Source of the DNA: an uncultured delta proteobacterium
GTDB taxonomy: Bacteria; Desulfobacterota; Desulfuromonadia; Geobacterales; DSM-12255
Reading direction: 5' to 3'
Assembly (NCBI GenBank): GCA_963787125.1
Contig: CAWBBV010000016.1
Location: 21,679-85,678 of the forward strand
Length of the DNA stretch: 64,000 nucleotides
The translations under genes were made by a program, and so were the position numbers. Position 1 is the stretch's first letter, and every line of letters starts with the position of its first letter. This document shows positions 6,001-35,725 of this stretch, in pieces. The notes beneath the pieces were generated by a model, which was not told the DNA's origin, did not search any database, and saw only the letters and a list, made by a program, of their open reading frames with translations.

Positions 6001-9000
6001 AATTGCTTGGGAGCGTAACAGTCGCGATGACATTATGCTCTCCAGAGGTGAAGTATTCACGGATCTGAACCCGATAGAGAAACGTGCTGCCGTTGGCGCT
6101 GCCAACAGCCGGTGCCGAAGAAAGGGTCTCAGTCATGGACATGTTAGCATCTGGCACTGTTACCGTAACTGACGTTCCGGCATCCAGGTTAAATCTTCCG
6201 GTGTTATTCAACCTGAGTGTCAGCCCGGCAGTACTTCTGACCCGGTGGGAGTTACTGTCAAAGGTGGCATCAATTGCTAAAGTGTTGGGGAGAGCTATTG
6301 ATGTAGCCATTCCGTTTCTGGTCTCGTCACTCTGCGAGTAGTCAAGGGTATAAGTGCCGAATTTAAGCGGCGGGACAGTTATGGTGGTAGAGAGCGTTTT
6401 GCTCTCCCCTACGTTCAAACTGAAAGGCTGTTCAGCGGTTGCTACCGACTGCCCATCCGGATCTTTCAAGGTCACGGTGAGGTTGCCGGAGGCTATGGGG
6501 AGAGTGCCGCTGTTGGCAAGGTTGAAGCTTATGGAATTAGGACCGCTGGAAAATGCCGCGGGAAGCAGCGGATTTACGGTTATCCGGCTGACTGCCACGC
6601 CGAAGCTTTGTGTAGCGCTGCCTATCCAGATGCCGGTCGCGTCATACATGTTTGCTGTGACAGTGTAGTTCCCGCCCAGAGCGGACAAGGGGAGCGGAAA
6701 GCTCTGGTTGAGGGTCAGGCTGCCGTCAGCGGCCAGGTTCGCTGGACTACTTGTGTCGTAAACAGTCATGCCGTTTGGGTCAATCACCTCAAGTCGTAAG
6801 GTTGCTGCCAACTCTATTGACTGGGGGTTTTGCAGGGCAGCGGATATGTTGATTGTCTCACCTTTGGAGTAAACGGTCTTGTCGGTCTGTACAGCTACAG
6901 AAACCGTTGGGGAAAGGTTGTTAAAGAGGGTCGGGCTGAAGATCAGTATCCCCCCCGGTTCCAGGGAAGCGGTGAAACTGGCCGGGAAATAGCCGGCTCG
7001 CGCAGTGGCGGCTGTGACAGTGACCAGGCCGGGGGTGACGTTATCCAGGCTGTAAACCCCTTCGCTGGTGGAGGCGGTCTGATTGTCCCCACCTCCTCTT
7101 GCCAAGATTACGGCATCGGCAAAGGGGAGATTGGTCATGCCGTCCGTCACCGTTCCTCTTATTGTGGCAGGCAGCGGGTTCGAAGACAGAGGGATGCTGC
7201 CGGCGTTATTGACCATGCCCGGCAATATTGCTGTGGTCAGGGTGCGCAAGGAGTAACCGCTCAGCGAGATGGTGACCTGCTGCACCCCCTTTGGCAAGGC
7301 AGCAAAGGTGAATATGCCACTGCTGTCTGTTGTCACGCTCACAGCAGGGTCGGCAATTGTTGTCAGGGCGACTCCTGCAAGCGGCTGCCCCGAAACAGCA
7401 TCAACCACTATTCCACTAAGACTTCCTTTGGTCTCCAGGGGAGTAAGAGCAACATCCAACTGCTGTGTCCACATCGCGGCTTTGCCACCAGGCTGTTTCA
7501 AAATGATGGTTCTACCTACATAGCCGCTGGCAGCAATCTTGACCGTAAATCCCATCTCCTTGATGTCGGCAACAACATAAGTTCCGGCAAAGTCGGTACG
7601 GGCAGTGAGATTGGAGCCAACGACCATGATTTCGGCAGCAGTGATTGGCAGCCTGGTGAGGCTGTCGGTCACCATGCCGGTAAGGGTTATGGTGTTGGCA
7701 GACATGACGAGGCGGATTGTTCCCAGATCGGTGGTGACGCCGGGAGTGATGACCAAGCGGAAGGTCTGGCTGATAAAACCGCTCATACCCACTGTCACCT
7801 GGTAGGTATTAGGAGCCAGCCCCTCGAAAGTGAATTTGCCGCCGTCGTCAGGGTTGGGGTCTACAAATGCGCCGCCGGAGATGGTGACTCTTACCCCCTG
7901 CTCTCCCAGCAGGTGGTCGATAGGCAGTCCCCACAGGTCGCCGACAACCCGGCCAATAATGGTACCGGTGGTGATCGTTGAAGGGGTGGCACTGAGTCGC
8001 GGGGAGATAGCAAGAGTGGTACGAGCGTAGACCCTTCCCGTGCCGCTGAAGCTCAGGTAGCCGGTTTTGGTTGCCGTGATGGTGACGTCACCGGGGGTGA
8101 CATAGCTGAAGGAGAAGGCACCGTCTGCCCCGGTCAAGGCGTTGCCGCTCCAGGCGCCGCTGACTGCGATGGCGACTTCTGGCAGAGGCTTTCCTGACGG
8201 ATCCAGAATGGTGCCGCTGATAGTGCCGGTGGTGTAGGCGGAGGTTATGGCAACTATTCCGAGGCTGACGCTGGTGTCAGCTATTGAGGTGGCGGAAGCA
8301 GATGCAGATAAATAGCCGGAAAGAGTAAAAACAATCTTCTGTGCGCCTGGCGGCACATCCGCAAGGGTGAAGTTGCCGGAGGCATCGGTGACTGTGTTGA
8401 TCACAGGGTTGTTCTCCAGGACAACAGCCACTCCATTGACCCCTTGGCGGGTTATAGTGTCAAGCAGAGTCCCTGTGATTTTACCGGCAGATGGTGGTGC
8501 AGGGGGTGGCGCGGGGCGGTTTTCAAAGAGGTATATTGCTTTTATGGCAAGCGCCGTGGCATAGGGATCGTCGTTCCAGGAGCCATTCAAGGACTGGGCT
8601 CCTGTCAAAAAGTTAATTGCATTTTGTAGAGGCAAGTCTTGTGTTTGCCCATTACCTACCAGAGCGATGAACGCTAGGGCGGTTTCGTAGGCGGTGCCGA
8701 AACCACCGTCCAGGTTCTGGTGAGCAAGGAGATAGGTCGTGGCTCTGTTTACGGCGGTGGCGATGCTGATCATCTGCGGGAACTGTTGCAGAGTGGCGGA
8801 GACGATGGCGGTCAGGTAGATGTTGCTGTCATCGCCAACTGAGAAGCCCCAGCCGCCGTCGGGGTTCTGGCTGCTGGTGAGGTAGGCGAGAGCGTTGTTG
8901 ATGATAGTGATGTCGGAGAAGTTGGTGGCTTTTAGGGCCTGAAGGGCAAGGGAAGTGTCAAGAGAGTTGACAAAATATCCTTCATCCCCTCCCCAGGCTC

Positions 9001-9361
9001 CTTTGGATGGATCGATAAGGGGTAAAAGAGCATTGATGCTATTGCCGGTAAGACTCAGGACGCGGATTTGGTCAGCGAGGGTATCAACGGAAAGCGGCGT
9101 CTGCCCTTGCAGCCAGGAAGCGCCGGTGGTATAGGAGGTTCCGGCGGTCTGGTTCAGGAGTTTGAGAGTTTCCAGTGCGCCAACCGTGACAGCGGTGGTC
9201 TCAACCGGAGTGGTACTGGTCTCCCAGGTGCCATCAGGGTTTTGGGATGCGGAGAGGTAGCCAAGGCCGCTTGCTATCTGCGGTAGCTGGGCGTGAGCCG
9301 CCATGGTGAATATCAATGAGCAGAACATCGCCAAAATAATGAACAACTGCCGTCTATGCAT
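1..9361 (-). CDS. Giant secreted/cell-surface multidomain protein; N-terminal >3,100 codons, C-terminus beyond the left window edge
   Basis: Missing from the ORF track because it has no in-window stop. Minus-strand frame opens at ATG 9361..9359 (AGGAGG 5 nt upstream); no other minus ORF is listed in that frame down to nt 1. My translation: MHRRQLFIILAMFCSLIFTMAAHAQ (signal peptide). SQNPDGTW/SQNPDGGWG/HQNLDGGFG/AQSLNGSWN repeats, prenyltransferase/terpene-cyclase-like (~8530-9290). Many carboxypeptidase-regulatory-like beta-sandwich repeats (~6800-8500). Ig-like modules. A ConA/LamG-like segment (~4900-5460: FSDNFNDGVLDIDRWS...GKFRIKRVGSSLDLYFWNGSNW). RCC1-type propeller repeats (~540-1490: KDGSLWSWGWNASGQVGDG, KDGSLWAWGSNYSGRLGDG, SDGSLWTWGNNYSGQLGDG). 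Confidence 0.85.
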   Translation of the reverse strand, partial: MHRRQLFIILAMFCSLIFTMAAHAQLPQIASGLGYLSASQNPDGTWETSTTPVETTAVTVGALETLKLLNQTAGTSYTTGASWLQGQTPLSVDTLADQIRVLSLTGNSINALLPLIDPSKGAWGGDEGYFVNSLDTSLALQALKATNFSDITIINNALAYLTSSQNPDGGWGFSVGDDSNIYLTAIVSATLQQFPQMISIATAVNRATTYLLAHQNLDGGFGTAYETALAFIALVGNGQTQDLPLQNAINFLTGAQSLNGSWNDDPYATALAIKAIYLFENRPAPPPAPPSAGKITGTLLDTITRQGVNGVAVVLENNPVINTVTDASGNFTLADVPPGAQKIVFTLSGYLSASASATSIADTSVSLGIVAITSAYTTGTISGTILDPSGKPLPEVAIAVSGAWSGNALTGADGAFSFSYVTPGDVTITATKTGYLSFSGTGRVYARTTLAISPRLSATPSTITTGTIIGRVVGDLWGLPIDHLLGEQGVRVTISGGAFVDPNPDDGGKFTFEGLAPNTYQVTVGMSGFISQTFRLVITPGVTTDLGTIRLVMSANTITLTGMVTDSLTRLPITAAEIMVVGSNLTARTDFAGTYVVADIKEMGFTVKIAASGYVGRTIILKQPGGKAAMWTQQLDVALTPLETKGSLSGIVVDAVSGQPLAGVALTTIADPAVSVTTDSSGIFTFAALPKGVQQVTISLSGYSLRTLTTAILPGMVNNAGSIPLSSNPLPATIRGTVTDGMTNLPFADAVILARGGGDNQTASTSEGVYSLDNVTPGLVTVTAATARAGYFPASFTASLEPGGILIFSPTLFNNLSPTVSVAVQTDKTVYSKGETINISAALQNPQSIELAATLRLEVIDPNGMTVYDTSSPANLAADGSLTLNQSFPLPLSALGGNYTVTANMYDATGIWIGSATQSFGVAVSRITVNPLLPAAFSSGPNSISFNLANSGTLPIASGNLTVTLKDPDGQSVATAEQPFSLNVGESKTLSTTITVPPLKFGTYTLDYSQSDETRNGMATSIALPNTLAIDATFDSNSHRVRSTAGLTLRLNNTGRFNLDAGTSVTVTVPDANMSMTETLSSAPAVGSANGSTFLYRVQIREYFTSGEHNVIATVTLPSNSSATKGTKLVIFEAVLTLMPLPGKYNAGDTINHVISNSGGVDSPLELSLRLYDAKGMPVAAKNDSVTVMAGGSLSPALVIPAGAVDGSYNLVINFKDLTTGKEETVTHPLTISGVKGSLTVQTGKQNYLTTEGINSLSSITNSGIALQDGNLHLQVTSATGSNKQQTWTSQADFQQGTRNGVDTIETVDAVTLLAFSDNFNDGVLDIDRWSLGSAPNGPLPMEENGYFLLDLPWSTGGWNGTSATTRAPLTGDFDAMVDYNIVSPWQPASNNHPAGMMVSVGGWSARIDVWGSSPTYGVIDSYGQYRNTGPVLLNGKFRIKRVGSSLDLYFWNGSNWDNMMSYGGEPISGPAYLSLLNFGPTGNSNVQYDNFLVTTQTYPDSGTLNLKYDSAANSETWDKLTFNGDMPNGTAMKFRTRTAETEADLAEATWSSYLTASGSQITSPKGRWIEVEGTLSTTDRAVTPVLRDITVSREHKPGDIFWQTDIPVNLAQGVLADPNNLIGAIGQIGKYYLQGTLTANTGQAFATAEYPFYVVQGDTLFSINPDRKMYKPGETVTISGEVTNLATIEAANLSLTVKARVFAVSENLLQDTFSIPAGSSHPFKVTTIAGTDGLVNLTATIIQSAATLASVADYYEVVSPKVTATLNGPESAGSDPFTLTLTLVNSSRIAAVVSVANSVNSIVETVIIPAGQTKTLQYQQQITANKINTFNISGDLALQLTKSVVYTAPKQVAKVNVKAVTDKFVYDANKPVAVAATVTCLDVGLNVESLTAKVLISNSSGEVFFADRFILPTLDAGRSYTFSRYWNSGSHPEGAYYVRLEVEAGGVVLATSEEYFYIRSSAYTRTELAGTIAPTINSVYQSVDEVFAVTLVNNGNEHMERFIVVQAINPDTYEVMAQSTRLVTFSQQGTFSGNINLPTTSLNERNYLAALRISVPADGWYYDPLRDTAPPLALTRFNVMATPPPSLLLSTLANGAVTNNQTLNIAGNATSMFDLDKSIIINGIQVPVNFDSSFSHALLLQEGSNDVTVTVLDALGHKVTETRTIIFDQAAPVLTITAPADNSNSATPLISITGTVTEGTTVQVKLGENVQIAEMSGSVFTVALSLLPGWNTIEITATDLTGKQNNAKRTLFFDAQKPSLAITDPGQDILTGKNIIKGTVDPQSVAGINIYVNGWLYTPQVVDGAFEQILYFPVGGENGYEKRDYAVYVSATNAVGEEITSVQRNVIYDITAPAVAIDTVISPTNQNRQTITGTRDSGAMITVNCATAFVGKVIYRSATTWSVVVSGFNANGNDITVTAVNAAGNSGNATASIVYDIISPTGSITINSGAEITGVTTVQLTLNASDDTGVTRMKFSTDRSNWTFPEEYSSARLWTFASGDGMKQLFVKYGDAAGNWSIEQSASISLTEILKVIITAPQSGFTSNAVPLLTFTANVGTVVVKVDGVVVAKSSGDYLDHLTDGMHTVRIEATDVAGNMGYAERSFVVDLTSPILVSPVISVSSYAHTVAVLKDGSLWSWGWNASGQVGDGTTEDKLSPVRIGTDVDWSEVIAGFVHTLALKKDGSLWAWGSNYSGRLGDGTTEDKLVPVKIGQDNDWRALAAGGNNSFALKKDGTLWGWGSNDYGTLGDETTEPKLVPSRIGTDSDWLAIAAGGDAYIVALKSDGSLWTWGNNYSGQLGDGTRESKFLPTKIGTDTDWQSITAGNDFTMAIKSNGTLWGWGTNESGQLGDVDPEGTLVPIQIGLDTNWNAVSAGWGRVIALKKDRTLWCWGGDYCGQQIDSMDQSGTAPVKSKVTNVSSLADIKGSSSLVIKDDGSLWGWGDSWSGLFADGITQFSEIPTVVPIVNGNGLFINNGATVTTSSAVLLSFAAVDISGVTEMQFSNDNDGWSAPEPYTNSKNWILSGEMGIKTVYARFKDAVGNWSQAYSNTIIADISIVTTPPGLLVNPGVTPTNLNFQTISGTTDAGAIVTIAVDPGTVAGPVSFTTPTTWSCSVTGLREGV

Positions 9362-9396
9362 AAAATCCTCCTAATTATAAAAAGGGCACTATCAAT

Positions 9397-9837
9397 TCAT
9401 TTACTTGTGGCTATTTCATTTACCCTACGTATTAAATCAGCTGCTTGTGAAATAAACTTTAATTCTATTCTATTGCTATCAAACTCAATAATAATACATC
9501 CACGTTTTGCATCTGTTATAGATATATTTGATAAATTAGATAACGGTATTATATTAATAATCCTATCCATTTTCATAAATGAGTCATATTTCGGCATATC
9601 AAGCTCAATTCTATCATTATATAATGTTATTGCTTGACTGGAACTTTTACATAATAAAAGTAGAAGTATTAGTAAAATAATAGATATAGCTATAAATAAC
9701 CATGCCATTAAATATATTTTACTTACATATAAAACTATTGAAATAGATGTAATTACACACCACGTGAAAGCTAGATATATCACAATATTAATCTTAGAAA
9801 ATGACTTATTGTAAAATAATATATTGCAATTATTCAT
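9397..9837 (-). CDS. Small AT-rich membrane protein (2 predicted TM helices + ~75-aa soluble tail); candidate cognate partner/immunity gene of paralogue A
   Basis: 146-aa ORF. Hydrophobic stretches IVIYLAFTWCVITSISIVLYV and WLFIAISIILLILLLLL. My hand count of a 60-nt sample (9421-9480) gives 30% GC. Removing the IS1380 element makes its ATG overlap the stop of paralogue A (ATGA). Confidence 0.7.
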   Translation of the reverse strand: MNNCNILFYNKSFSKINIVIYLAFTWCVITSISIVLYVSKIYLMAWLFIAISIILLILLLLLCKSSSQAITLYNDRIELDMPKYDSFMKMDRIINIIPLSNLSNISITDAKRGCIIIEFDSNRIELKFISQAADLIRRVNEIATSK

Positions 9838-9857
9838 ACTGTCTCCTCTCGTTTAAT

Positions 9858-11530
9858 CCCGAATCCGCAAACCTTTGCCGGACACATTCATACAGGGTGA
9901 TTTCGGAGGTATTTTTTTGAGTGAGACCCCATTGAGGGGAGTCGAAATCACAGTTTTCAGCAAATTTCAAAAAGTGACGAGCTATTTTCCTCTTCAGGCG
10001 GTGTTTTTGCCGAATTAGGGACGAACTGCCACCTTGATCTTGTTTTTTGCTCTTTGACAATCTTGTTTTCAGTGTTTCCTTTAGCCGGTTACCGGCTGGA
10101 GCCTGCTGATTCTCGCCTGTATTCTGTCAGGGCGAAGCTTCTCCAGCCACCAGCCGTTGACTTTTAGCAGGTTCTTGCGAGCATGATTGACCACGATTGC
10201 CGCACTACGCAGCAGATAATCCTGAATGGTCTTGATCCGCCGCCGCACTGGTGTTGCCTGACTGTCCGTCTCTATATCACCAGTTTCATCCCGCCACTGC
10301 TGGCCCAGCAAAATTAGCAGATTGTAGGCCATGGTTCCCAATGTAAGGAATACTTCGTTGACACTGAAGGTCTGGGAGGGAAACCGTTCCAGGTCCAGAT
10401 CGTGCTTAAGCTCTTTGTTTGCCTCCTCTGCCGCTCCACGTCCCCGATAGAGTTCGAATGCTCGCTGCGGGGTAACATCTTTGGGCAGGTTGGTGGCCAG
10501 TACGTGATAGCGGACATCATTGATCAGCAGTGGCTCCCCTTTTTCGTCTACAGACTTGATCTGAACGCAGAAGACGAAGCGGCGTGGAATCTTCCAGCCG
10601 CTTGGGGTGTACTCGAATTCTCCGTAGAACTCACCACCGAAGTCCGTGACTTTGAGGCTCATAACGTCTACATCGAGATTCTCGTTTACCACCCGGTCCA
10701 AAGCGCCACTGGTTCGGGCCTTGACCAGATAGTACGCCCCGGCATCTTCGCTGGCCTGGACAGTTTTGATGCTATAGAGCCCGGCATCGTAGCGAAAGAG
10801 GAGCTTGTTTCGATCTATCTTCTCAGGGAGCAGCTCTGCCGTTTCCCTGATAAAATCGTCAATCCGTTCGACAGCTTTCTCTCGTCCTGGCAACAGCCAG
10901 TGATTGATGCAGAACCGTTCGCGACCTACAACAGCAAATACGGGGGTATAGCAGAGTTTGCCGTTGTATGTGGTTTGAGCACCTTCTCGTTTGGGCGCAA
11001 ACTGCTCAAAAATACTTGGATCAATATCGCAAGGGATGTAACCTTCAGCTCCCGGTTCAGCAGTGATGGTTGCCTGGGAAACAATCTTTGCTCCGACCCG
11101 CTTGAGACCAGTGATCTGCTCTTTGCCATATTTTTCAAGATGCGTGGCAACAGCCCGTTCTTTTGGGAGTTTGTTAAAGCCAAGCGACTTCTTGAGCAGT
11201 TTTTCTTCCCGAGCGAGCCAGGCAAGATCAGTGTAACTAGTCCGGCGTAGGGAAATGTTTAGTAACAGCGGGATCAGATGTTCCTCTTCCCGGAAGCCGT
11301 AGTCGATCTTCTTGACCCGCACCTCGCTTCTGATTGCTCGAATCAAATCGAGACGGCGTATGAGGGTGGTGAGCAACTCCAATCCTGCTACGGAAGTTAG
11401 TGTCTGTCGGGCTGCTACATACTGGAAACCAAGATTGTCTTTCACCATTCGGGTGAACTCCTTCACTGCAATTATGTGAAGGATTATAGCATGTTACGTT
11501 ACATTAGCCCAATAGTTTTGCGGATTGGGG
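9858..11530 (-). mobile_element. IS1380-family insertion sequence (1,673 bp) with 5-bp TTAAT target duplication
   Basis: Terminal inverted repeats CCCGAATCCGCAAACCT (9858->) and CCCCAATCCGCAAAACT (11530<-) match 15/17. They are flanked by direct TTAAT at 9853-9857 and 11531-11535. Length, CC-starting IRs and a single ~455-aa DDE transposase fit IS1380-family characteristics. Confidence 0.8.
10081..11448 (-). CDS. IS1380/IS4-like DDE transposase
   Basis: ORF track 10081..11466 starts at GTG. ATG at 11448 (MVKDNLGF...) has GAAGGAG upstream. C-terminal ...YRGRGAAEEANKELKHDLDLERFPSQTFSVNEVFLTLGTMAYNL is the Y-(2)-R-(3)-E-(6)-K style signature region of IS4/IS1380-type DDE transposases. Confidence 0.85.
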   Translation of the reverse strand: MVKDNLGFQYVAARQTLTSVAGLELLTTLIRRLDLIRAIRSEVRVKKIDYGFREEEHLIPLLLNISLRRTSYTDLAWLAREEKLLKKSLGFNKLPKERAVATHLEKYGKEQITGLKRVGAKIVSQATITAEPGAEGYIPCDIDPSIFEQFAPKREGAQTTYNGKLCYTPVFAVVGRERFCINHWLLPGREKAVERIDDFIRETAELLPEKIDRNKLLFRYDAGLYSIKTVQASEDAGAYYLVKARTSGALDRVVNENLDVDVMSLKVTDFGGEFYGEFEYTPSGWKIPRRFVFCVQIKSVDEKGEPLLINDVRYHVLATNLPKDVTPQRAFELYRGRGAAEEANKELKHDLDLERFPSQTFSVNEVFLTLGTMAYNLLILLGQQWRDETGDIETDSQATPVRRRIKTIQDYLLRSAAIVVNHARKNLLKVNGWWLEKLRPDRIQARISRLQPVTG

Positions 11531-11910
11531 TTAATAAATTCAATCAATGCTATATTTATTAACATTTGACCAACTGTTAATAGTGCAACCAATAATATTC
11601 CAAGGCCAATGATGGCTAAGCCAAATGGTGTTGCAGCAATTAATGTAGTTAATGCAGTCCCCATATAACCTGATAAAATATAGCCTAATACACTTGTTCC
11701 ACCAGTCCCTAGTAGAGATGAAAATAAAGTTTTCCCAAGGTTAAAATCAGTGTTATTTATGAGTGAGTCTAATGTTGAAATTAGAAATGAAGACAACACT
11801 GTAACTACCAAAGCCGCTACGCCTAAACCTGACAATGCTAGCAGTACTGATATCAATGTAAATGCTCCCCATAAAAGGTCTTTCCCTAAATTAACCGCAC
11901 ACCCACTAGC
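11494..11910 (-). other. Variable C-terminal module CT-A (138 aa, multi-helix hydrophobic, Gly/Ala/Ser-rich)
   Basis: Similarity to paralogues B/C ends after GYMISGG. Sequence ASGCAVNLGKDLLWGAFTLISVLLALSGLGVAALVV...GLAIIGLGILLVALLTVG. My hand count of 11541-11600 gives 27% GC, against 58% for 13201-13260 in the conserved body. Confidence 0.75.
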
Positions 11911-14541
11911 CCCCCCGCTAATCATATACCCGCCAGCCCCAGTCTCCGGATTGGTAATGATATAACCACACCCATTCCACCCATTGAAGTTGATGTTGGT
12001 CTTGGAAACAGTAACAACTTTTCCGGCATTGACGGCATTGGCGATGTCGTCCTTTGTTTGCTGGTCTACCTGCAACTGCGGCATTACTGTAGCAATATTT
12101 GACTGGTTGATTGTATAGATCGGTATCCCCTGGTCATTGGCAATCTTGAGCGCCTTGACCGTGCTGATTCCTTGCACTGAGTTACTTGGCGTGGAGAAGA
12201 GCTTCTCCGGCACATTGTGCTCCAGCGCCGAGGAAGTCATGCCGCTGGAGAGCATATACTGCTTGGCGGTCTCGCTGTTGCCGTCTTTTGCCTTTACTAC
12301 CTGCATCAGATAATCAGCATCCATATTGAGTCCGCCGGAACTGATATAGCGCGGTATTCCCCAAAGACACATTACTTTGAGCTTGGTGGCGAAGATGGTT
12401 TCTGACGGTACGGTGATGGCGTTGACGTTCATGGTTTTTGCGGCAATGTAGTTCATGGTGCCGAGTTCGGCATGATAGGCCATGGCGGTGGTGTAGAGGA
12501 GATCACCGATCAGATCATCTTTGGTCATGCCGGCGAAGTCGTTGTTCTGCAGTTTTGCTTTGGTAGCTTCCAGTTTTGCTTTGAGCCCGGTTAACTGCTC
12601 GGCGCTGATTCGCCCCAGGTTGAGCCCGATTGCCTGGTACACCCCGGCGTCAATGTAGTTGGTTATCTGGCTTGAGCCGTAAGCCGGGTCGCTGAAGGTC
12701 ATGGTGGAGATGTTGGTGCCGCCAAGGCCTACCGGCGCTCCGGTGGCCACTACCTGACCGTCAATCCTGAGTTCCGGTTTGACGTTGATCAGATACGCCG
12801 GTAGTTGGCTGGGCAGTTCGCTTGGCTGTATGGGGGTGCCGTCTGCATGCGGGCTTGGCAGGTAGGAATTGATGACTGCTTCATCCTGGGCGGTTGCCGG
12901 ACTGTAGCTGAGGGTAATCTTTTTGCCTGCCAGTTCTGCGAGGCTTTTGGTTATGCTCAGTGAGTTGTCCACCGGTGCCGGTGCTTCGGGATCAATGAAG
13001 GTGTTGGATGCTTCGTTCTCTACCCTGAAGGAGAGCTTGTGCCGCAAGCTGTCTGGGATGCTTGCAAACGTGCTCCCCTTGACGGCGGTGCGGTACGGCA
13101 GGGTACCGAGGAGATGGCGGTATTCTTTTTTGATGATCTCTTTTTTGCCGAGGACGTCGCCGACAGTGGCGTTGGCGTGGTTCTGCTGGATGTAGCTCTG
13201 TACCCGTGCCTGGTAGTCTTGCATGGTCTGCTGGGTGAGGATGGAGTTGATGCCGGTGACGTAGCCTTGAGTTTCGTTGATAGTGGCGGTGGCCTTGATC
13301 TGGTCGAGGAACGCTTGAGCGTCGAAGGGGACTGCTGTCTTGATGTCGATGCCCTGGGTGAAGTTGTACTGCTTGTAGCTCGGATCAAGAGGTATCCAGG
13401 TGTCACCCTTGCCGCTTATATGCTTTGCGCCACGGGAGGGGATGTAGTTGATGAAAGCTTCGACCGAGACATGTTCAAAACGGGCAGCAACGATCTTGCC
13501 GCCGCTAACCAGTCCCTTGGTGGGAATGCCGCCGCTGGACATGAAATCGAGGGCGGACAGTGGGTCGGTGAAGCCTCCGGCCCAGTTCATGACTTTATCA
13601 ATGGGGAGTTCTACTGTGCCGGTGACATAGCGGGCATTGATCCCGGCAGCTCGCAGCAGAGCGATGAGGAGGGAACTTGTATCAAAGGAGTTGCCCTGCC
13701 TGGTGAGCAGGGTCATCTGCGCCCCCTGGATGGAGCCCCAGGTGGGGACGAACTCGACGTTGTTCCGTACCCACTCGTAAATCTTTACCGGATTATTCCC
13801 CAGCTCCAGAGCCTTGGCCTTTATTTCGGGGGTGAGCTGGACTTCTATGTTTTCTGCCAGATCATCGGCAGGCAGCAGGCCGGCAACTGAGCCGTTGGCG
13901 GCAACCATGATCCGCTTGGCGCTCTTCCAGGCATGTTTGTCTTTTTTGAAATCCTTGTCGAAGTCTTCTTTCTTCAGCCGCGGTTCGCGTTTTTGAGCTT
14001 TGGGCTGGCGGTGAGGGAGGTTGTTCGGGTCGAGCTTCTGGTGGCGGGAGGGGGCTTTGGCCCGCTCAAGATGCTGGCGGGTCTTGTCAATGGCAGCTTG
14101 CAGCTCGGCATCGTTCTTTGCCGTTGCCGCCCGCTCAAGGTTCCCTTTCAGTTCAGTCAGGTTGTCATCGTAATGTTTGACGAACTTCTGATGCCGCGCC
14201 AAGATCTCGGGCGACATGCCAGAAGCCTTCAGTTTCTTCTCAGTGGCGGCGAGTTCGCTGCGGATGGCGGTGTCATGGGCGTCCAGCTCCGCTCTGGCAG
14301 CGCTCAGCCGCTGTTTTTTGTGATCATGGCCGGTTTTGGGATCTTGGAGATCGGCAGTCAGCTCCTCAGTAAGCTTGGCGAAGCGCTCTTCCGCCCCCTC
14401 GCTCTTCCTGGTCGGAGTTTCCTGGTTCCCCTTTTTAACGGCATCCACCGCCCCGTGGGCAAGGCTAAAGACACCACCTGATGTCCAGGTGAAGAATGAC
14501 AGTACAACTGCGGCAATGACTCTTGAGTACTTGCGAAACAT
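11494..14541 (-). CDS. Paralogue A: exported transglutaminase-fold protein with variable hydrophobic C-terminal module (last ~12 codons supplied by IS1380)
   Basis: 1015 aa. Signal peptide MFRKYSRVIAAVVLSFFTWTSGGVFSLAHG. K/E-rich coiled coil. Transglutaminase-like core GNSFDTSSLLIALLRAAGINARYVTG...FEHVSVEAFINY...WIPLDPS. Body ends NFNGWNGCGYIITNPETGAGGYMISGG. RBS GGAGA before ATG 14541. Confidence 0.9.
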   Translation of the reverse strand: MFRKYSRVIAAVVLSFFTWTSGGVFSLAHGAVDAVKKGNQETPTRKSEGAEERFAKLTEELTADLQDPKTGHDHKKQRLSAARAELDAHDTAIRSELAATEKKLKASGMSPEILARHQKFVKHYDDNLTELKGNLERAATAKNDAELQAAIDKTRQHLERAKAPSRHQKLDPNNLPHRQPKAQKREPRLKKEDFDKDFKKDKHAWKSAKRIMVAANGSVAGLLPADDLAENIEVQLTPEIKAKALELGNNPVKIYEWVRNNVEFVPTWGSIQGAQMTLLTRQGNSFDTSSLLIALLRAAGINARYVTGTVELPIDKVMNWAGGFTDPLSALDFMSSGGIPTKGLVSGGKIVAARFEHVSVEAFINYIPSRGAKHISGKGDTWIPLDPSYKQYNFTQGIDIKTAVPFDAQAFLDQIKATATINETQGYVTGINSILTQQTMQDYQARVQSYIQQNHANATVGDVLGKKEIIKKEYRHLLGTLPYRTAVKGSTFASIPDSLRHKLSFRVENEASNTFIDPEAPAPVDNSLSITKSLAELAGKKITLSYSPATAQDEAVINSYLPSPHADGTPIQPSELPSQLPAYLINVKPELRIDGQVVATGAPVGLGGTNISTMTFSDPAYGSSQITNYIDAGVYQAIGLNLGRISAEQLTGLKAKLEATKAKLQNNDFAGMTKDDLIGDLLYTTAMAYHAELGTMNYIAAKTMNVNAITVPSETIFATKLKVMCLWGIPRYISSGGLNMDADYLMQVVKAKDGNSETAKQYMLSSGMTSSALEHNVPEKLFSTPSNSVQGISTVKALKIANDQGIPIYTINQSNIATVMPQLQVDQQTKDDIANAVNAGKVVTVSKTNINFNGWNGCGYIITNPETGAGGYMISGGASGCAVNLGKDLLWGAFTLISVLLALSGLGVAALVVTVLSSFLISTLDSLINNTDFNLGKTLFSSLLGTGGTSVLGYILSGYMGTALTTLIAATPFGLAIIGLGILLVALLTVGQMLINIALIEFINPNPQNYWANVT

Positions 14542-14799
14542 TTATGTCTCCAAAATTACCGTAATTGATTTCCAGAAGTCGGGGCTCAGATCCGTCGGGC
14601 AATCGCCAGGAGCCTTAATCTTGAGAGAAGCGAGAATCTGCCCTTCTTCGGGATCGGTGAAGTCAATATCGTCACCCATCTCGACAAAACAATCCGTATC
14701 TTCCGGCAACCTGATCATTTGCAGCAGAGCATAACGGACCTGATAGAGATAGCCGAGGGCCTGTTTGCCTGCGGAGAAATTGTCGGTTGTGTCAGCCAT
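14542..14799 (-). pseudogene. 85-codon fragment resembling the N-terminus of DUF4297/Cap4-type dsDNA-nuclease (defence-effector) proteins; apparently truncated
   Basis: MADTTDNFSAGKQALGYLYQVRYALLQM...VEMGDDIDF...TDLSPDFWKSI resembles the G-(F/Y)-x-Y-Q ... E-x-x-D-D-I ... W-K N-terminal pattern of that family (recognised from memory, not searched). The ORF stops (TAA) directly abutting the ATG of paralogue A, at about a third or less of normal family length. Confidence 0.4.
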
Positions 14800-14904: not shown

Positions 14905-15333
14905 TTAATTGGTTACCAACCAAAAAAGCCCAACAATGTTAGTTGCGATTATTATTATTATTATTTGCCAACCATAAACCCCTGTTTTAAGAGTTGAAAT
15001 TCTAGGGCATGACTTCGAGTAAATTATATCTAAAGGCTCTTTCTTTAATTTCTTATAAAGAGCATCATGTTCAAGTTCATCAATTGTATTATAAATTGGA
15101 TTCATAAAACTTATCCTGGTTCCAATGTGTTTATCACTATCCACCGTGTACTCATATTTGATATTAACTGAGACAAAACGTGCCTTTTGCACTTTCAATT
15201 CAATTATATTCCCTGTAGCATGAGGCCAATTTTTTGAAGTTAAGCCTAAATATACAACTAATAATAAATAACTAGTCGAGCAAATCATAATAAGCATAAG
15301 CAGCACTGAAAATGCATCCATTTTGCACCTCAC
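14905..15333 (-). CDS. Small AT-rich membrane protein, DUF3592-like (TM - beta domain - TM); candidate partner/immunity gene of paralogue B
   Basis: 142 aa. N-terminal TM FSVLLMLIMICSTSYLLLVVYLGL, then WPHATGNIIELKVQK...VNIKYEYTVDSDKHIGTRISF (pattern typical of DUF3592), then C-terminal TM WQIIIIIIATNIVGLFWLV. Lies 65 nt downstream of paralogue B. Confidence 0.7.
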   Translation of the reverse strand: MRCKMDAFSVLLMLIMICSTSYLLLVVYLGLTSKNWPHATGNIIELKVQKARFVSVNIKYEYTVDSDKHIGTRISFMNPIYNTIDELEHDALYKKLKKEPLDIIYSKSCPRISTLKTGVYGWQIIIIIIATNIVGLFWLVTN

Positions 15334-15398: not shown

Positions 15399-15758
15399 TC
15401 ATACTATTTGTCTTTTTATTCCAAACCTATTAATTGCATAGAGCGCTACACGCAAATCGAGATAAGCAGCTAATGCAATCATAATGTATAAAGCTATTGC
15501 TCCTGCTGGTGCTAATATCAAAGCCGAGCTAAGAGTCACTTGTATTACGAAATTCGCAAAAATGGCACTCCAATTATGATCAATCGACAAACCTTCAGCT
15601 CCATCGACAATTCCTGATCCTATTAGACTTATAGCTGTTGCAAGAAAAGTAGTTATTGCAACTCCACCAATTTCACCGATCATCAACAATAAACCTATTT
15701 CTGGCCCAAAAGTTAAAACTAGCATGAATAATACAGACCACATCGCAATTATTAAGTA
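15399..15758 (-). other. Variable C-terminal module CT-B (119 aa, multi-helix hydrophobic)
   Basis: Identity with paralogue C ends after GYMISGGSNGG. Then YLIIAMWSVLFMLVLTFGPEIGLLLMIGEIGGVAITTFLATAISLIGSGIV...ALILAPAGAIALYIMIALAAYL; visibly AT-rich. Confidence 0.75.
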
Positions 15759-17450
15759 TCCACCATTCGACCCCCCACTAATCATGTACCCACCAGCCCC
15801 GGTATCCGGGTTAGTGATAATATAACCACACCCAATCCAGCCATTGAAGTTGATGTTGGTCTTGGAAACAGTAACAACCTTCCCTGCGTTGACGGCGTTT
15901 AGAATATCGTCCTTCACCTGCTGATCGACCTCCAACTGCCACATTACAGTTCCGATGTTCGCCTGATTAACCGTGTAGATCGGTATCCCCTGGTCATTAG
16001 CAATTTTTAGCGCCTTGACCGTGCTGATCCCTTCGGCTTTGTTGTCCGGTGTGGAGAAGAGCTGTTCCGGGACGCTGTGCTCCAGCGCCGAGGAAGTCAT
16101 GCCGCTGGAGAGCATATACTGCTTGGCGGTCTCGCTGTTGCCGTCTTTTGCCTTTACTACCTGCATCAGATAATCAGCATCCATGTTGAGTCCGCCGGAA
16201 CTGATATAGCGCGGTATTCCCCAGAGACACATTACCTTGAGCTTGGTGGCGAAGATGGTTTCTGACGGTACGGTGATGGCGTTGACGTTCATGGTTTTTG
16301 CCGTGATGTAGTTCATGGTGCCGAGTTCTGCATGATAGGCCATGGCGGTGGTGTAGAGGAGGTCACCGATCAGATCATCTTTGGTCATGCCGGCGAAGTC
16401 GTTGTTCTGCAGTTTTGCTTTGGTAGCTTCCAGTTTTGCTTTGAGCCCGGTTAACTGCTCGGCGCTGATTCGCCCTAGATTGAGGCCGATGGCCTGATAG
16501 ACCCCGGCGTCAATGTAGTTGGTGATCTGGCTTGAGCCGTAGGCAGGGTCGCTGAAGGTCATGGTGGAGATGTTGGTGCCGCCCAGACCTACCGGTGCTC
16601 CGGTGGCTACTACCTGCCCGTCAATTCTGAGTTCGGGTTTGACGTTGATGAGGTATGCCGGGAGCTGGCTGGGCAGTTCGCTTGGCTGTATGGGGGTGCC
16701 GTCGGCATGCGGGCTTGGCAGATAGGCGTTGATGATAGCTTCGTCCTGAGGGGTGGCCGGGGAGTAGCTTAAGGTTATCTTCTTGCCTGCCAGTTCTGCG
16801 AGGCTTTTGGTTATGCTCAGTGTGTTGTCCACCGGTGACGGTGCATCAGGATCGACGAAGGTGTTTGAGGCTTCGTTCTCTACCCTGAAGGAGAGCTTGT
16901 GCCGCAAGCTGTCGGGGATGGTGGTGAATGTTGCCCCCTTGACAGCGGTGCGGTACGGCAATGTGCCGAGAAGATGGCGGTACTCTTTTTTGATGATCTC
17001 TTTCTTGCCAAGAACATCGCCGACAGTGGCATTGGCGTGGTTCTGCTGGATATAGCTCTGTACCCGTGCCTGGTAGTCCTGCATGGTCTGCTGGGTGAGG
17101 ATGGAGTTGATGCCGGTGACGTACCCTTGTGTTTCATCAATAGTGGCGCTGGCCTTGATCTGATCAAGGAACCCCTGGGCGTCGAAGGGGACTGCTGTCT
17201 TGATGTCGATTCCCTGGGTAAAGTTGTACTGCTTGTAGCTCGGATCAAGAGGTATCCAGGTGTCACCCTTGCCGTTTACATGCTTTGCTCCACGGGAGGG
17301 GATGTAGTTGATGAAGGCTTCGACCGAGACATGCTCAAAGCGGGCAGCAACGATCTTGCCTCCGGCAACCAGACCTTTGGTGTGAAGTGGTTGCGCTTTA
17401 TGAGACATGTGTGTAAGCAATGAACCTCCCTATTTCAAAAGGAGAGTTCA

Positions 17451-17759
17451 ATGCAACAACATCGTACACGTCACAGCGCAGCTTTTAAGGCCAAGGTCGC
17501 TTTGGCCGCCTTATCAGAGTCAAAGACTCTGGCAGAGCTTGCAACCGAGTACCAGGTTCACCCGACCCAGATCACCCGTTGGAAGCAGGATCTGATTGCA
17601 AATGCTTCTGACCTTTTTGGCAAGGGCAAAAAGAAAGAAGTCAACCATGAGGGCGAAGTGGCCGAGCTTCACCGCCTGATCGGCAAGCTCAAGGTTGAGA
17701 ATGATTTTTTGTCACATCTGCCCGGGCTGAACTTGGCCGGGCGCAGAAACAACAAGTGA
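17451..17759 (+). CDS. IS3-family transposase OrfA (HTH)
   Basis: 102 aa; HSAAFKAKVALAALSESKTLAELATEYQVHPTQITRWKQDL is a helix-turn-helix followed by a leucine-zipper-like LHRLIGKLKVEND. Confidence 0.9.
   Translation: MQQHRTRHSAAFKAKVALAALSESKTLAELATEYQVHPTQITRWKQDLIANASDLFGKGKKKEVNHEGEVAELHRLIGKLKVENDFLSHLPGLNLAGRRNNK
17705..17711 (+). promoter_or_regulatory. Candidate -1 programmed ribosomal frameshift heptamer T-TTT-TTG
   Basis: In the orfA frame the codons read gaT TTT TTG (D-F-L), an X-XXY-YYZ slippery motif. Shifting -1 here reads on without a stop into the orfB frame (FFVTSARAELGRAQKQQVIATGHP...). Confidence 0.6.
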
Positions 17760-18592
17760 TCGCCACCGGTCATCCTGAAGTTTCTGTTGAACGCCGCTGC
17801 CAGCTTCTGGGTCTGCCTCGTTCCAGCTATTACCGTGGCCCTGCTTCCGGTCTTCGTTCCGGTGACCTGGAAATGATGCAGCGGATCGACAAACTCTACA
17901 TGGAGCAGCCCTGGATGGGGAGCCGCTCACTGGCCAACCACCTCACGACACCTGAAGCACCCTTGGGACGAGATCGTGCCCGTCGCTTGATGCTCATCAT
18001 GGGTATTGAATCCCTGGCTCCTCAGCCGGGCACCAGCAAGCGGCAACCGAAGCATCCGGTCTATCCCTATCTGCTGCGGGGAATGACCATTGACAAGCCC
18101 AATCAGGTCTGGGCGACTGATATCACCTACATCCCCATGGCACGGGGATTCATGTACCTGATAGCGATCATGGACTGGGCCACCAGAAAGGTTCTGTCCT
18201 GGCGTCTGTCCAATACGCTGGATACCCGATTCTGCGTCGAGGCGCTCAAAGAAGCTCTGTTCAAATACGGTGCCCCGGAGATCTTCAACACCGACCAGGG
18301 CTGCCAGTTTACCAGCGAAGCATTCACGTCAGTGCTCAAAACCTGGAACATCAAAATCAGCATGGACGGCAAAGGTCGTTTCAGGGACAACATCTTCGTC
18401 GAACGGCTCTGGCGCACGCTGAAGTATGAGAGAATCTACCTGAACGTTTATGAAACGGGAACCGAACTTTCCAAAGACATGACATACTGGTTCAACTGGT
18501 ACAACGTAACCAGAAAACATACATCTCTTGACAAACTGACACCGGATGAGGCTTATTTCCAAGGACTTGAAAAACTGAAACTGGCAGCCTGA
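17756..18592 (+). CDS. IS3-family transposase OrfB (DDE/rve integrase core); probably made as an OrfAB fusion
   Basis: 278 aa. WATDITYIPM..., NTDQGCQFTS..., ERLWRTLKYE match the DDE(35)E rve catalytic regions. It lies in the -1 frame relative to orfA. Confidence 0.9.
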   Translation: MIATGHPEVSVERRCQLLGLPRSSYYRGPASGLRSGDLEMMQRIDKLYMEQPWMGSRSLANHLTTPEAPLGRDRARRLMLIMGIESLAPQPGTSKRQPKHPVYPYLLRGMTIDKPNQVWATDITYIPMARGFMYLIAIMDWATRKVLSWRLSNTLDTRFCVEALKEALFKYGAPEIFNTDQGCQFTSEAFTSVLKTWNIKISMDGKGRFRDNIFVERLWRTLKYERIYLNVYETGTELSKDMTYWFNWYNVTRKHTSLDKLTPDEAYFQGLEKLKLAA

Positions 18593-19781
18593 AGCCAGAA
18601 AACCACAACAACCAAGGGACATTGCTTATTTCACCCTTCAGGCTGTCTCACTAAGCCCGGCCACCTCAGTGGGAATGCCACCGCTGGACATGAAATCGAG
18701 GGCGGACAGTGGGTCGGTGAAGCCTCCGGCCAAGTTCATGACTTTATCAATGGGGAGTTCTACTGTGCCGGTAACATAGCGGGCATTGATCCCGGCAGCT
18801 CTGAGCAGGGCAATGAGGAGGGAACTTGTGTCAAATGAGTTCCCCTGTCTGGTCAAGAGCGTCATCTGCGCCCCCTGGATGGAGCCCCAGGTGGGGACAA
18901 ACTCGACGTTGTTACGCACCCACTCGTAGATCTTTACCGGATTGTTCCCCAGCTCCAGAGCTTTGGCCTTTATTTCGGGGGTGAGCTGTACTTCTATGTT
19001 TTCTACGAGATCATCGGCAGCCAGTAGGCCGGCAACTGAGCCGTTGGCGGCAACCATGATCCGCTTGGCGCTCTTCCAGGCATGTTTGTCTTTTTTGAAA
19101 TCCTTGTCGAAGTCTTCTTTCTTCAGCCGCGGTTCGCGTTTTTGAGCTTTGGGCTGGCGGTGAGGGAGGTTGTTCGGGTCGAGCTTATGATGGCGGGAGG
19201 GGGCCTTGACCTTTGCCAGGTGCTGACGGGTCTTTTCAAACTCAGCCTCTACATCGGTTTTGCTTTTCGCTTTCTCAACACGATCAATGTTCCCCTTCAG
19301 CTCGGCAAGGTTGTCGTCGTAGTGTTTGACGAACTTTTGGTGACGGGTCAGGATCTCTGGCGGCAGTTTGGCGTTCTTGAGCTTCTTTTCGGTGGCAGCA
19401 AACTCGCTGCGGATGTCGGCGTCAAGGGTGTCTAGCTCAATTTTGGCCGCTAGCAGCTTGTCCCGTTTGGCTCCATGAGCCAGTTTTGAATCGGCCAGTG
19501 TCTCCCGCAACTCCTCAGTGAGTTTGGCCAGCTTCTCTTCCGCTCCTTCGGCCTTTTGCGCCGGAACTGCGGTCTTGGCCTTTTTCGCACCATCAACCGC
19601 TGCATGGGCAGCGCTGAAAACTCCGCCGGATGTCCAGGTGAAGATGAAGAGAACCAGTGTGGCAGTTATTTTTGTGAAGCTATGGGGCATTTTTATCCCA
19701 TCTGCCATCTGAATTTATCTGCTAAGGTAATGTAAAGTCAAGTTGATGCTATTTCTGTAAAAACAAATTATTTATCAGCAG

Positions 19782-20372
19782 TTAGGATATTTCTTTGTAT
19801 AGTACACCATGCCTATTTAATACATCTCTTATCGATTGAACGTCAGCTTCATTTAAATGATGTCCTGTAATAGCGAATACTGAAATTCCATAGTTATTTA
19901 CACATCTGGGTATTATTCCTTTTGTCCGAATGTATAAATAGAATTTTTTTCTTTCATCGCTACCAATTTTCAATAATGATTGGAGCTCATATATGGAATA
20001 AAATTCAATATCAGCCCATTTCTCAGCTATTAATCTGTATATTGGTACTCTAGCGAGAAATTTATTTGGATATAGGGCAATTCCATTGTTTGTGATTATA
20101 AGCTTCATATTTCTTGAATAATTAATATAATATGCTGGCAGCATAACAATAAGTAATATTAACAGTTCAATAACAACCAAACTGATTATACTAAATCTGA
20201 TTATCAATAAATGTGAATATAAAGCATCATAAGTAAATACTAGCAAAACAATAACATTTAGTAAGACTTCTTTGTATGTTATGTATTTGCTTGCCTTTGG
20301 TTTATAAATTGAATCAAATTTACAACATATATCTGCACTTACAATATATTCGTATTTATTTTGTGTTTTCAT
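19782..20372 (-). CDS. Small AT-rich membrane protein (2 TM + ~100-aa C-terminal domain); candidate partner/immunity gene of paralogue C
   Basis: 196 aa. TM stretches LLNVIVLLVFTYDALYSHLLII and FSIISLVVIELLILLIVMLPAYY. The ATG is 7 nt after the stop of paralogue C, with AGGA overlapping that stop (tAGGAtaattATG). Confidence 0.7.
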   Translation of the reverse strand: MKTQNKYEYIVSADICCKFDSIYKPKASKYITYKEVLLNVIVLLVFTYDALYSHLLIIRFSIISLVVIELLILLIVMLPAYYINYSRNMKLIITNNGIALYPNKFLARVPIYRLIAEKWADIEFYSIYELQSLLKIGSDERKKFYLYIRTKGIIPRCVNNYGISVFAITGHHLNEADVQSIRDVLNRHGVLYKEIS

Positions 20373-20379
20373 AATTATC

Positions 20380-20760
20380 CTATAAAAAGAAATATGCTAT
20401 TAAATCAACAAAATATGCACAATAAGCAACAAGGTATTGCACAAGCTGTATTTCAACTGATTGCGGTACTCCTCCACTAAAAGGACTAGGCATGCCTCTT
20501 AGTAAAAATCCTAACGCTATCTGACCTATAATATCCATAATTGCCCCAGATCCTGTAATAATAGTCAAATCAGTCAGGCCATAACTTCTTCCAAATACTG
20601 TTTGTATAGTATTTGCAATTACCACTTGAATAACTGTCGTCAATATAGGAACCATAACTATTCCAAGAGGCGTTGTGAATGTCAAACCAAGTGCAATTGA
20701 TAATAGCAATATCGAAAAGTATGATACCCACATTGCAGATGCGTATGGAAATAATAAATC
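20380..20760 (-). other. Variable C-terminal module CT-C (126 aa, multi-helix hydrophobic)
   Basis: After GYMISGGSNGG: DLLFPYASAMWVSYFSILLLSIALGLTFTTPLGIVMVPILTTVIQVVIA...GAIMDIIGQIALGFLL...LVQYLVAYCAYFVDLIAYFFL. No alignment to CT-A or CT-B; AT-rich. Confidence 0.75.
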
Positions 20761-27156: not shown

Positions 27157-27158
27157 GG

Positions 27159-27258
27159 TTACACCGGTCCGAATCTGGGTGGGCGAACCAGCCCGGCAGC
27201 GGCCAAAGACTCCTCGGCGGTCAGTCCGCGTTCACTGCCCTTAATGGCGATTTTGGAC
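27159..27258 (-). CDS. tnsC: tnsC exon 2 (C-terminal 33 codons + stop)
   Basis: Encodes (L)SKIAIKGSERGLTAEESLAAAGLVRPPRFGPV*. It is in frame with exon 1 once the 1,895-nt intron is removed, and the stop is 2 nt before the tnsD ATG. Confidence 0.7.
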
Positions 27259-30685: not shown

Positions 30686-30691
30686 GATGGC

Positions 30692-35669: not shown

Positions 35670-35725
35670 AAAAGTCTCCGTTCAAAATTCATGAATTCAC
35701 TCGACAACTACACTAATAAAAGCGT

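Follow-up and report, generated by a model that had tools for sequence, protein, structure and literature searches.

Why would three nearly identical neighboring genes each end in a different hydrophobic tail, and what are the small membrane proteins encoded beyond those tails? The question is raised by the window analyzed here, a 64,000-nucleotide stretch of contig CAWBBV010000016.1 from an uncultured delta proteobacterium of the Geobacterales (assembly GCA_963787125.1), whose minus strand carries three paralogues of ~1010 aa each, designated genes A, B, and C. An initial annotation had proposed that their variable C-terminal tails (CT-A, CT-B, and CT-C) are toxin modules with membrane immunity partners rather than mere anchors. 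Our comparative sequence results support that proposal as a candidate explanation, and we consider it probable that A, B, and C represent a Sec-exported polymorphic-toxin family with membrane-damaging hydrophobic tails and cognate membrane immunity partners.

The three proteins share a conserved body of ~880 aa that ends in GW.GCGYIITNP.TGAGGYMISGG. Over their last 500 aa the bodies are 93–96% identical in protein sequence. The genes are 85–94% identical in DNA, and DNA homology among the paralogues stops at this junction motif (11903 in A, 15763/15747 in B, and 20765/20749 in C); beyond it, the tails have no DNA homology and their protein identity is at chance level. In gene A the boundary between body and tail, placed by conservation, is the junction motif NGWNGCGYIITNPETGAGGYMISGG (11911–11985, minus strand). 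The tails that follow, all on the minus strand, occupy 11494–11910 (CT-A, 138 aa), 15399–15770 (CT-B, 123 aa, stop included), and 20380–20772 (CT-C, 130 aa, stop included). Placed by the junction, the B and C tails start at 15770 and 20772 instead of the 15758 and 20760 first described. The junction is recognizable in 93 genes from several phyla, with the family pattern GW.G.GY....P.TG.G.Y.ISGG.

The description of the tails as hydrophobic and multi-helical held up, and the peptides quoted in the initial annotation are all present in the translations. The grand average of hydropathy (GRAVY) of the tails is 1.10–1.26 (1.10 for CT-C and 1.26 for CT-B), and each contains two or three non-overlapping Kyte–Doolittle transmembrane (TM) windows (three in CT-B). 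AlphaFold2 (AF2) gives five main helices in CT-A (residues 880–903, 907–929, 935–944, 947–970, and 973–1003) and a short one at 1007–1014. By a Hessa-scale sum, which is crude and position-independent, each tail has one to three segments at or below +1 kcal/mol, all marginal (−2.3 to +0.6), and 2–4 Lys+Arg; by the same sum, the best TM segments of the partner open reading frames (ORFs) score −2.4 to −6.5 kcal/mol, and these proteins have 15–24 Lys+Arg. The Hessa scores and the few Lys and Arg residues are weak evidence that the tails differ from ordinary anchors.

Each tail is linked to a small ORF on the minus strand that encodes about two TM segments, as the membrane character attributed to these ORFs had implied. 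The immB candidate (14905–15321, 138 aa; to 15333 and 142 aa from an upstream GTG) starts 66–78 nt past the gene B stop, has the order TM, ~85-aa domain, TM, and is identical in protein sequence to database entry P0121. The immC candidate (19782–20372, 196 aa) starts 8 nt past the gene C stop and consists of a 2-TM hairpin and a soluble C-terminal domain of ~110 aa. For gene A, the partner is separated from CT-A by a 1673-bp insertion sequence (IS) inside the 3' end of the gene (9858–11530, minus strand). This IS is delimited by 17-nt imperfect inverted repeats (9858–9874 and 11514–11530) and a 5-bp target duplication (TTAAT, 9853–9857 and 11531–11535), encodes a transposase (10081–11466, Pfam DDE_Tnp_1_4), and is presumably IS1380-like, judging from size and repeat features. 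It supplies the last 11 codons of gene A, the stop, and position 3 of the Asn codon before them, and the encoded end PNPQNYWANVT stands in place of the native KREETV. The segment 11494–11910, the interval first annotated, encodes the final 138 residues of a 1015-aa ORF, but its last 37 nt (11494–11530) are IS and only 11531–11910 is native tail. In-silico removal of the IS plus one copy of the target duplication yields a 1009-aa protein ending ...LIEFIKREETV, with a TGA stop that overlaps the ATG of the ORF at 9397–9837 (ATGA). Because IS removal restores this overlap, we take this 146-aa ORF, the immA candidate (minus strand), to be gene A's native partner, coupled to it in translation. By Kyte–Doolittle analysis it is a 2-TM hairpin with a soluble C-terminal domain of ~80 aa; no sequence homologue of it was found, and the partner ORFs had no match in Pfam, NCBIfam, or PADLOC. 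Several unrelated partners (immA, immC, and the downstream ORFs of loci L004 and L038) have a common build, with a short basic N-terminus, a 2-TM hairpin, and a beta-rich domain of 80–110 aa, and in partners of this hairpin type the positive-inside rule places the soluble domain in the cytoplasm.

The pairing of tail and partner extends well beyond the window. The database holds more than 1000 relatives of the body, most of which cover ~87% of the query, i.e. all but the tail. A scan of one genome per species gave 206 relatives, and 74 loci were kept, from Geobacteraceae, Nitrospirota, Thermodesulfovibrionales, Smithella, Undibacterium, Thiotrichales, and others. In 91 relatives from 77 loci, the type of tail and the gene after it vary together. 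Of the tails, 88 unique ones fall into 56 clusters; over loci and database proteins together there are 184 unique tails, with 137 (74%) at a GRAVY of at least 0.6 and a median length of 129 aa. Co-variation was tested on 85 non-redundant locus genes with a downstream ORF by permuting cluster labels. Pairs with the same tail cluster and the same downstream-ORF cluster numbered 17, compared to a mean of 0.30 after shuffling (maximum 5; P ≤ 2e-4), and hydrophobic tails alone gave 12 such pairs against 0.24 expected (P ≤ 2e-4). The median gap from tail gene to downstream ORF is −3 nt. A downstream ORF with at least two TM segments follows 46 of 59 hydrophobic tails but only 6 of 26 less hydrophobic ones (odds ratio 11.8, P = 2.6e-6).

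Individual loci illustrate the same pairing. CT-C-type tails of L001 and L079 are directly followed by an immC homologue (58% identity), a remotely related tail at L011 precedes a remote immC relative (28% identity), and the CT-B-type tail of L002 has an immB homologue (47%) directly downstream, with 43% identity between CT-B and the L002/P0022 tail. Between gene C of the window and its counterpart at L001 (P0075), identity is 64% in the body, 67% in the tail, and 57% in the partner, whereas genes C and B of the window have bodies that are 96% identical and unrelated tails. The cassette phylogeny is discordant with the body phylogeny, and cassettes move independently of bodies. Base composition also changes along these genes, with GC contents of 0.54–0.55 for the body (0.543 in gene C), 0.35–0.37 for the tails (0.354 for CT-C and 0.368 for CT-B), and 0.24–0.32 for the partner genes (0.243 for immA and 0.274 for immC). 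At L011, L034, L042, and L063, 5'-truncated orphan modules with their own partner genes lie 3' of full-length genes. The L042 array (7971–13395, Geothermobacter hydrogeniphilus) consists of a full-length gene that is apparently frameshifted (ORFs 7971–10388 and 10175–11221 overlap in different frames), the partner gene of that copy, and, farther along, an orphan fragment of 351 aa that has a partner of its own, an arrangement like that of orphan loci of contact-dependent inhibition (CDI) and Rhs systems.

The same slot past the junction also holds recognizable domains. Among 37 less hydrophobic tails scanned for toxin domains, NlpC/P60 was found in eight (three, checked singly, exceeded the curated Pfam threshold; CHAP matches occur as well in some of the eight) and prokaryotic phospholipase A2 (PLA2; Phospholip_A2_3) in three (best E 2.9e-6, with a CNNHDECY motif), with weak matches to Tox-ART-HYD1 in two and to SLT in one; no nuclease or deaminase family matched any of the 37. 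The partners of peptidoglycan hydrolase tails are signal-peptide beta-propeller proteins (SBBP, PD40), an ART-like tail has a cytosolic repeat-protein partner, and a PLA2 tail has a 4-TM partner. Judged from these assignments, partner localization fits the expected site of toxin action. Since partner localization tracks the toxin site and hydrophobic tails have multi-TM partners, the hydrophobic tails would be expected to act in the membrane. In one further class of tails (L003 47–1561, L019, L057 11337–14618, and L064), one or two hydrophobic helices precede a domain that has a conserved RHYT motif and weak Tox-ART-HYD1 similarity. This class is paired with a cytosolic repeat protein of ~330–390 aa; it may combine a membrane-crossing module with a toxin that acts in the cytoplasm. 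Other soluble tails have no family match (L040 3912–7055 and 7938–11114, and L075; P0083, P0086, and P0057; P0080, P0040, P0069, and P0093). Types among them include a caspase-like YSGHG...NSCS pattern, a Cys-rich tail of ~150 aa, and Gly-rich/Cys-rich sequences after a shared helix A..MTYI.MF.T.SAW.DAW.N.S.YW, and they look like uncharacterized toxin domains.

What kind of protein carries these tails is best seen in gene C (20380–23403, minus strand), the sole intact copy, whose translation is identical to the 1007-aa database protein P0002. Its order is putative signal peptide, coiled coil, Cys-less transglutaminase-like core (Pfam Transglut_core, E = 9.9e-15), uncharacterized middle, junction, and CT-C. 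The N-terminus of the family, as read from the sequence, resembles a signal peptide (MFRKxSRxIAAVVLSFFTWTSGGVFS.AHA/A), with a basic n-region, a 20-aa h-region, AHG/AHA before Ala, and a Kyte–Doolittle window at residues 8–27. A helical region of ~110 aa and a Lys/Glu-rich linker come next, followed by the Transglut_core match at residues ~236–390 (E ~1e-14); the ~480 aa between this core and the junction have no family match in Pfam. Alignment to the transglutaminase-like protease 3isr puts Gly, or Ser/Ala depending on register, at the position of the catalytic Cys (QGNSFD); the other two catalytic residues, His and Asp, are present in the window proteins. The QGNSFD motif lies at ~13680–13700 in gene A; most relatives have QGN and a minority QCN, i.e. 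with the Cys present, and some lineages with QCN may have an active core. The AF2 model of the full-length gene A protein has a mean predicted local distance difference test score (pLDDT) of 64.8 and a predicted template-modeling score of 0.35. Its highest pLDDT coincides with the junction, where columns W855 to G880 are invariant. Foldseek searches with this model gave only weak PDB matches of transglutaminase fold, none at E ≤ 0.001, and nothing significant in BFVD, and the body had no match in NCBIfam or PADLOC. Two candidate features near the junction were rejected: Cys858 (of GCGY) as an autoproteolytic nucleophile, because V, T, S, or A takes its place in more distant relatives, and a conserved Trp-containing first helix past the junction as part of the scaffold, because its enrichment was weak (48% vs 34%).

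The other two copies have both been hit by IS elements. Gene A (11494–14541, minus strand) is the 1015-aa ORF in its present state, with an IS in its last codons. Gene B is interrupted within the transglutaminase core by an IS3-family element on the plus strand (17387–18668; orfA 17451–17759 and orfB 17756–18592), recognized from the break in paralogue homology and from Pfam HTH_Tnp_1 and rve. The 5' part of gene B is thereby cut off. That part, from the putative signal peptide to the middle of the core, was located by tblastn with gene A residues 1–342 (18669–19708, minus strand); its DNA homology to the paralogues covers 18669–19644, and its Pfam Transglut_core match is truncated. The 3' part, with the junction and CT-B, was assigned by paralogue homology (15399–17386, minus strand). 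The CT-B/immB cassette is a de facto orphan after this split. Besides these three full-length-type copies, the window contains no extra toxin-gene fragments.

The three genes lie next to a transposition module. Pfam identifies tnsA, tnsB, tnsC, and tnsD of a Tn7-like element together with a group II intron reverse transcriptase (25339–33675, minus strand), the latter a reverse transcriptase/maturase between tnsC and tnsD (27338–28849, minus strand). These genes are directly downstream of glmS (33834–35669; glmU plus glmS 33834–37096), and the order from glmS is tnsA, tnsB, tnsC, reverse transcriptase, tnsD, a 550-aa ORF, and the toxin genes. The 550-aa ORF (23690–25342) has no match in Pfam, NCBIfam, or PADLOC and sits where a tnsE-like targeting gene would be. 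Because the toxin genes come after the tns genes downstream of glmS, we interpret them as cargo of a Tn7-like element at the glmS attachment site.

The interval that separates immB from gene A holds 85 aa from the N-terminus of a Lamassu LmuA/DUF4297 protein (14542–14799, minus strand; PADLOC LmuA, 7.8e-12), a fragment that ends exactly at the gene A start codon. At L003 (region 8380–12013) a full-length gene with the same start (Pfam CTD7) follows a toxin/partner pair and is itself followed by MC3 and LmuB_C genes; at L001 a gene with the same LmuA start (7588–7758) also follows a toxin/partner pair, and the contig ends 57 aa in. The fragment suggests that these loci share a hotspot and that rearrangement of cassettes left a scar here. 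Toxin genes of relatives occur in integrative elements and beside Lamassu genes. At 24 of 77 loci, the product of the adjacent gene is secreted and combines CARDB repeats with an alpha-macroglobulin TED/prenyltransferase-like toroid; Undibacterium and others encode, upstream, a CarboxypepD_reg/FG-GAP/MG2 protein of ~2150 aa, with a 'pAdhesive_15' protein. These large secreted neighbors are at L049 (4459–7266), L047 (3192–4448), L056 (32–6490), and 22 further loci, and neither type is found beside the window copies. Such neighbors may be surface or delivery partners of the toxins. No components of type I, type V, or type VI secretion systems (T1SS, T5SS, and T6SS) were found as conserved neighbors.

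Interchangeable cassettes of tail and partner have been swapped in behind the fixed junction by recombination. In the mechanism that we propose, CT-A, CT-B, and CT-C would be non-enzymatic toxin modules of moderately hydrophobic helices, which would enter the cytoplasmic membrane from its periplasmic face and impair its function as a barrier or its energization. The co-varying downstream membrane protein would neutralize its own tail, probably by helix–helix contact within the membrane. Rival cells would be the target; transfer could conceivably occur through release of what the periplasm contains, through vesicles, or through a complex formed at the surface with the conserved neighboring surface proteins.

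Several observations weigh against this proposal. A protein that is exported by Sec and has hydrophobic C-terminal helices would be expected to undergo stop-transfer into the producer's own inner membrane, and neither the window nor the set of conserved neighbors at the 77 loci yielded an outer-membrane secretion partner. AF2 confidence is low in CT-A (pLDDT 42–66 per 10-residue block). Apart from a spurious DUF6203 hit, the tails have no Pfam match at E ≤ 1, neither to an enzymatic motif nor to a known pore-forming family, and no relevant sequence match to a PDB chain was found at E ≤ 10, solved colicin structures included. The small-residue spacing that had been ascribed to the tail helices was at or below expectation: GxxxG, [GAS]xxx[GAS], and the triple motif did not exceed 2000 shuffles in any of the three tails (P = 0.11–1.0), and G+A+S content is 25–31%. 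The analogy to glycine-zipper effectors of the Tse4/Ssp6 type falls with this periodicity. Portability of tails across delivery systems, a classic hallmark of toxins, was not shown by our searches. CT-A gave no phmmer match among 1.84 billion representatives, and a word-index search with CT-C gave none, but these searches for tails on other carriers are weak negatives because the word index missed even CT-C's own protein and clustering at 50% hides tail variants. A search with immB returned only immB itself, and a metagenome profile search with immC returned two short contigs with the same toxin upstream; the relatives of immB and immC that these searches recovered were all beside the toxin family. 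Toxicity, permeabilization, binding of tail and partner, and intercellular transfer are candidate properties.

The most serious rival explanation is that the tails act in cis, with a tail toxin and a same-cell antidote forming an addiction or exclusion module of a mobile element, or an abortive-infection effector that is triggered through the periplasmic body. Carriage of the genes by the Tn7-like element at glmS, and of their relatives in integrative elements and beside Lamassu genes, fits such a module, self-insertion via Sec is the simplest topology, and no delivery system is evident. Nevertheless, this explanation seems unlikely to us. PADLOC has no match for body or partners, and competition loci typically contain tandem full-length paralogues and 5'-truncated orphans whose sole differences are in tail and partner. 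Tails of the peptidoglycan hydrolase and PLA2 types, whose partners are secreted or membrane proteins, fit an attack on the envelopes of other cells better than suicide. Moreover, a simple toxin–antitoxin pair leaves a conserved exported body of ~880 aa unexplained.

A second explanation needs no toxin: the tails could be mere C-terminal anchors that tether the periplasmic body, with a small partner that is structural or regulatory. The stop-transfer insertion predicted from a signal peptide plus hydrophobic C-terminal helices is what an anchor would show, at least one segment per tail scores as TM, RloB and HM2192 offer a precedent for a periplasmic inactive transglutaminase with a multi-TM region, and the window and conserved neighbors revealed no export machinery. 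However, an anchor has no need of 56 unrelated tail types past a fixed junction, of co-varying partners, of low-GC cassettes, or of orphan modules. NlpC/P60, PLA2, and ART-like domains, which have no anchor role, occupy the same slot; the tails are nearly devoid of Lys/Arg topology signals; and no NCBIfam match was found, including to the 7-TM inactive-transglutaminase family. Anchoring is a possible reading that accounts for none of the polymorphism, and we hold it to be distinctly unlikely. Finally, tails and membrane partners could be non-lethal determinants of kin recognition, analogous to Proteus IdsD/IdsE, whose variable membrane-embedded regions must match. Hypervariable hydrophobic regions paired with co-varying membrane proteins and the lack of an enzymatic motif speak for this view, but other tails of this family are clearly destructive enzymes, toxin/immunity loci are where orphan modules and the exchange of low-GC cassettes are typically seen, and no T6SS or other exchange apparatus is linked, all of which makes this explanation very improbable.

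If the toxin/immunity interpretation is true, it adds dozens of unrelated hydrophobic toxin/immunity pairs on a scaffold without a known delivery machine. Few antibacterial membrane-inserting toxins are known, and most of them come from three sources: the colicins, a single CDI toxin, and a small set of T6SS effectors. The hosts are environmentally important anaerobes (metal reducers, nitrite oxidizers, and syntrophs) in which interbacterial warfare is little explored, the pairs would be natural material for studying specific neutralization of one membrane protein by another in the bilayer, and carriage by Tn7 would reveal a route by which such weapons spread. We advance a broader version only tentatively, and with more doubt than conviction: the family would be a large, experimentally untouched route of antagonism in Geobacteraceae, Nitrospirota, Smithella, Undibacterium, and others, with Sec-only export, near-exclusive action on the envelope, and delivery outside the T5SS, T6SS, and Rhs pathways (e.g., by vesicles or a complex of the alpha-2-macroglobulin/CARDB type), and its hydrophobic tails (~74% of all) would comprise dozens of unrelated new pore-forming or membrane-disrupting families, each with intramembrane immunity.

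How does this family compare with known systems? One parallel is CDI. CdiA-CT(EC93) is a non-enzymatic membrane-acting toxin that CdiI(EC93) neutralizes, and orphan CT/immunity modules accompany such systems; Imm-CdiI has a two-TM architecture. The window family shares the tail after a demarcation motif, the small two-TM partner, and the orphan modules, and its tails would likewise be non-enzymatic and act on the membrane, but it has no sequence similarity to CdiA. By Pfam, two-partner secretion domains, filamentous hemagglutinin repeats, the VENN/PT motif, and CdiB are absent from the body and from neighbors in the window and at the 77 loci. Pore-forming colicins A, E1, Ia, and N act on the inner membrane from its periplasmic face and are countered by small multi-TM immunity proteins through intramembrane recognition. 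The helical hydrophobic module and small multi-TM partner are common to both, and the same kind of action is proposed for the window tails. However, these tails are shorter than a colicin pore domain (120–140 aa vs ~200 aa) and far more hydrophobic overall, no pore-domain match was found in them in Pfam or the PDB, and the window family has no receptor-binding or translocation domains or lysis gene. The T6SS membrane effectors Tse4, Ssp6, Tme, and VasX are small, hydrophobic, and encoded next to the gene for an inner-membrane immunity protein. The window family resembles them in the hydrophobic module with a membrane partner next door but differs in that its proteins have a putative Sec signal, and T6SS genes, PAAR, VgrG, and Eag chaperones were found neither in the window nor among conserved neighbors.

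Two further systems have features in common with the window proteins. MafB/MafI of Neisseria has a signal peptide, a conserved but uncharacterized N-terminal domain, a polymorphic toxin end, downstream immunity, paralogous loci, and alternative cassettes, and its route of export across the outer membrane is likewise not settled. The MafB toxins described to date are for the most part enzymes, such as nucleases, and not hydrophobic modules, and Pfam finds no DUF1020/MAFB-N domain in the window proteins. In RloB/HM2192, a periplasmic inactive transglutaminase domain is fused to 7 TM helices, and the gene is in an operon with genes for an ATP-grasp enzyme and a retropepsin-like protease. A transglutaminase domain without catalytic residues joined to a multi-TM region is thus found in both, but RloB-type proteins are housekeeping, whereas the TM part of the window proteins is hypervariable (2–5 helices) and cassette-borne, with co-varying partners and other neighbors. 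No NCBIfam match to the 7-TM inactive-transglutaminase family was obtained.

The family also matches a class predicted by Zhang, de Souza, Anantharaman, Iyer, and Aravind in 2012, with a signal peptide, an inactive transglutaminase, RHS repeats, and a C-terminal toxin, exported by Sec and the type II secretion system (PMC3482391). That survey listed MafB beside inactive transglutaminase in the Sec class, noted that a polymorphic toxin of Pelobacter propionicus contains a PLA2 toxin, and included a single pore-forming toxin domain, the two-helix Tox-WTIP (PMC3482391). A core that lacks a catalytic residue, a hypervariable toxin slot, and downstream immunity genes are common to the 2012 class and the window family, whose N-terminus resembles a signal peptide; a literature search found no experimental study of the toxin family. 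In the 2012 class, RHS repeats (sometimes bacterial Ig domains) come right after the transglutaminase domain; Pfam detected no RHS repeats in A, C, or four full-length relatives scanned whole. The window family instead has a ~200-aa coiled coil before the core, ~480 uncharacterized aa after it, and the ISGG junction. By its predicted architecture, the family matches the inactive-transglutaminase, Sec-dependent polymorphic toxins of 2012 but without RHS repeats, and is in our assessment a variant of this predicted, experimentally unexplored class, one in which ~74% of the tails are hydrophobic and multi-helical compared to one pore-forming domain in the earlier survey.

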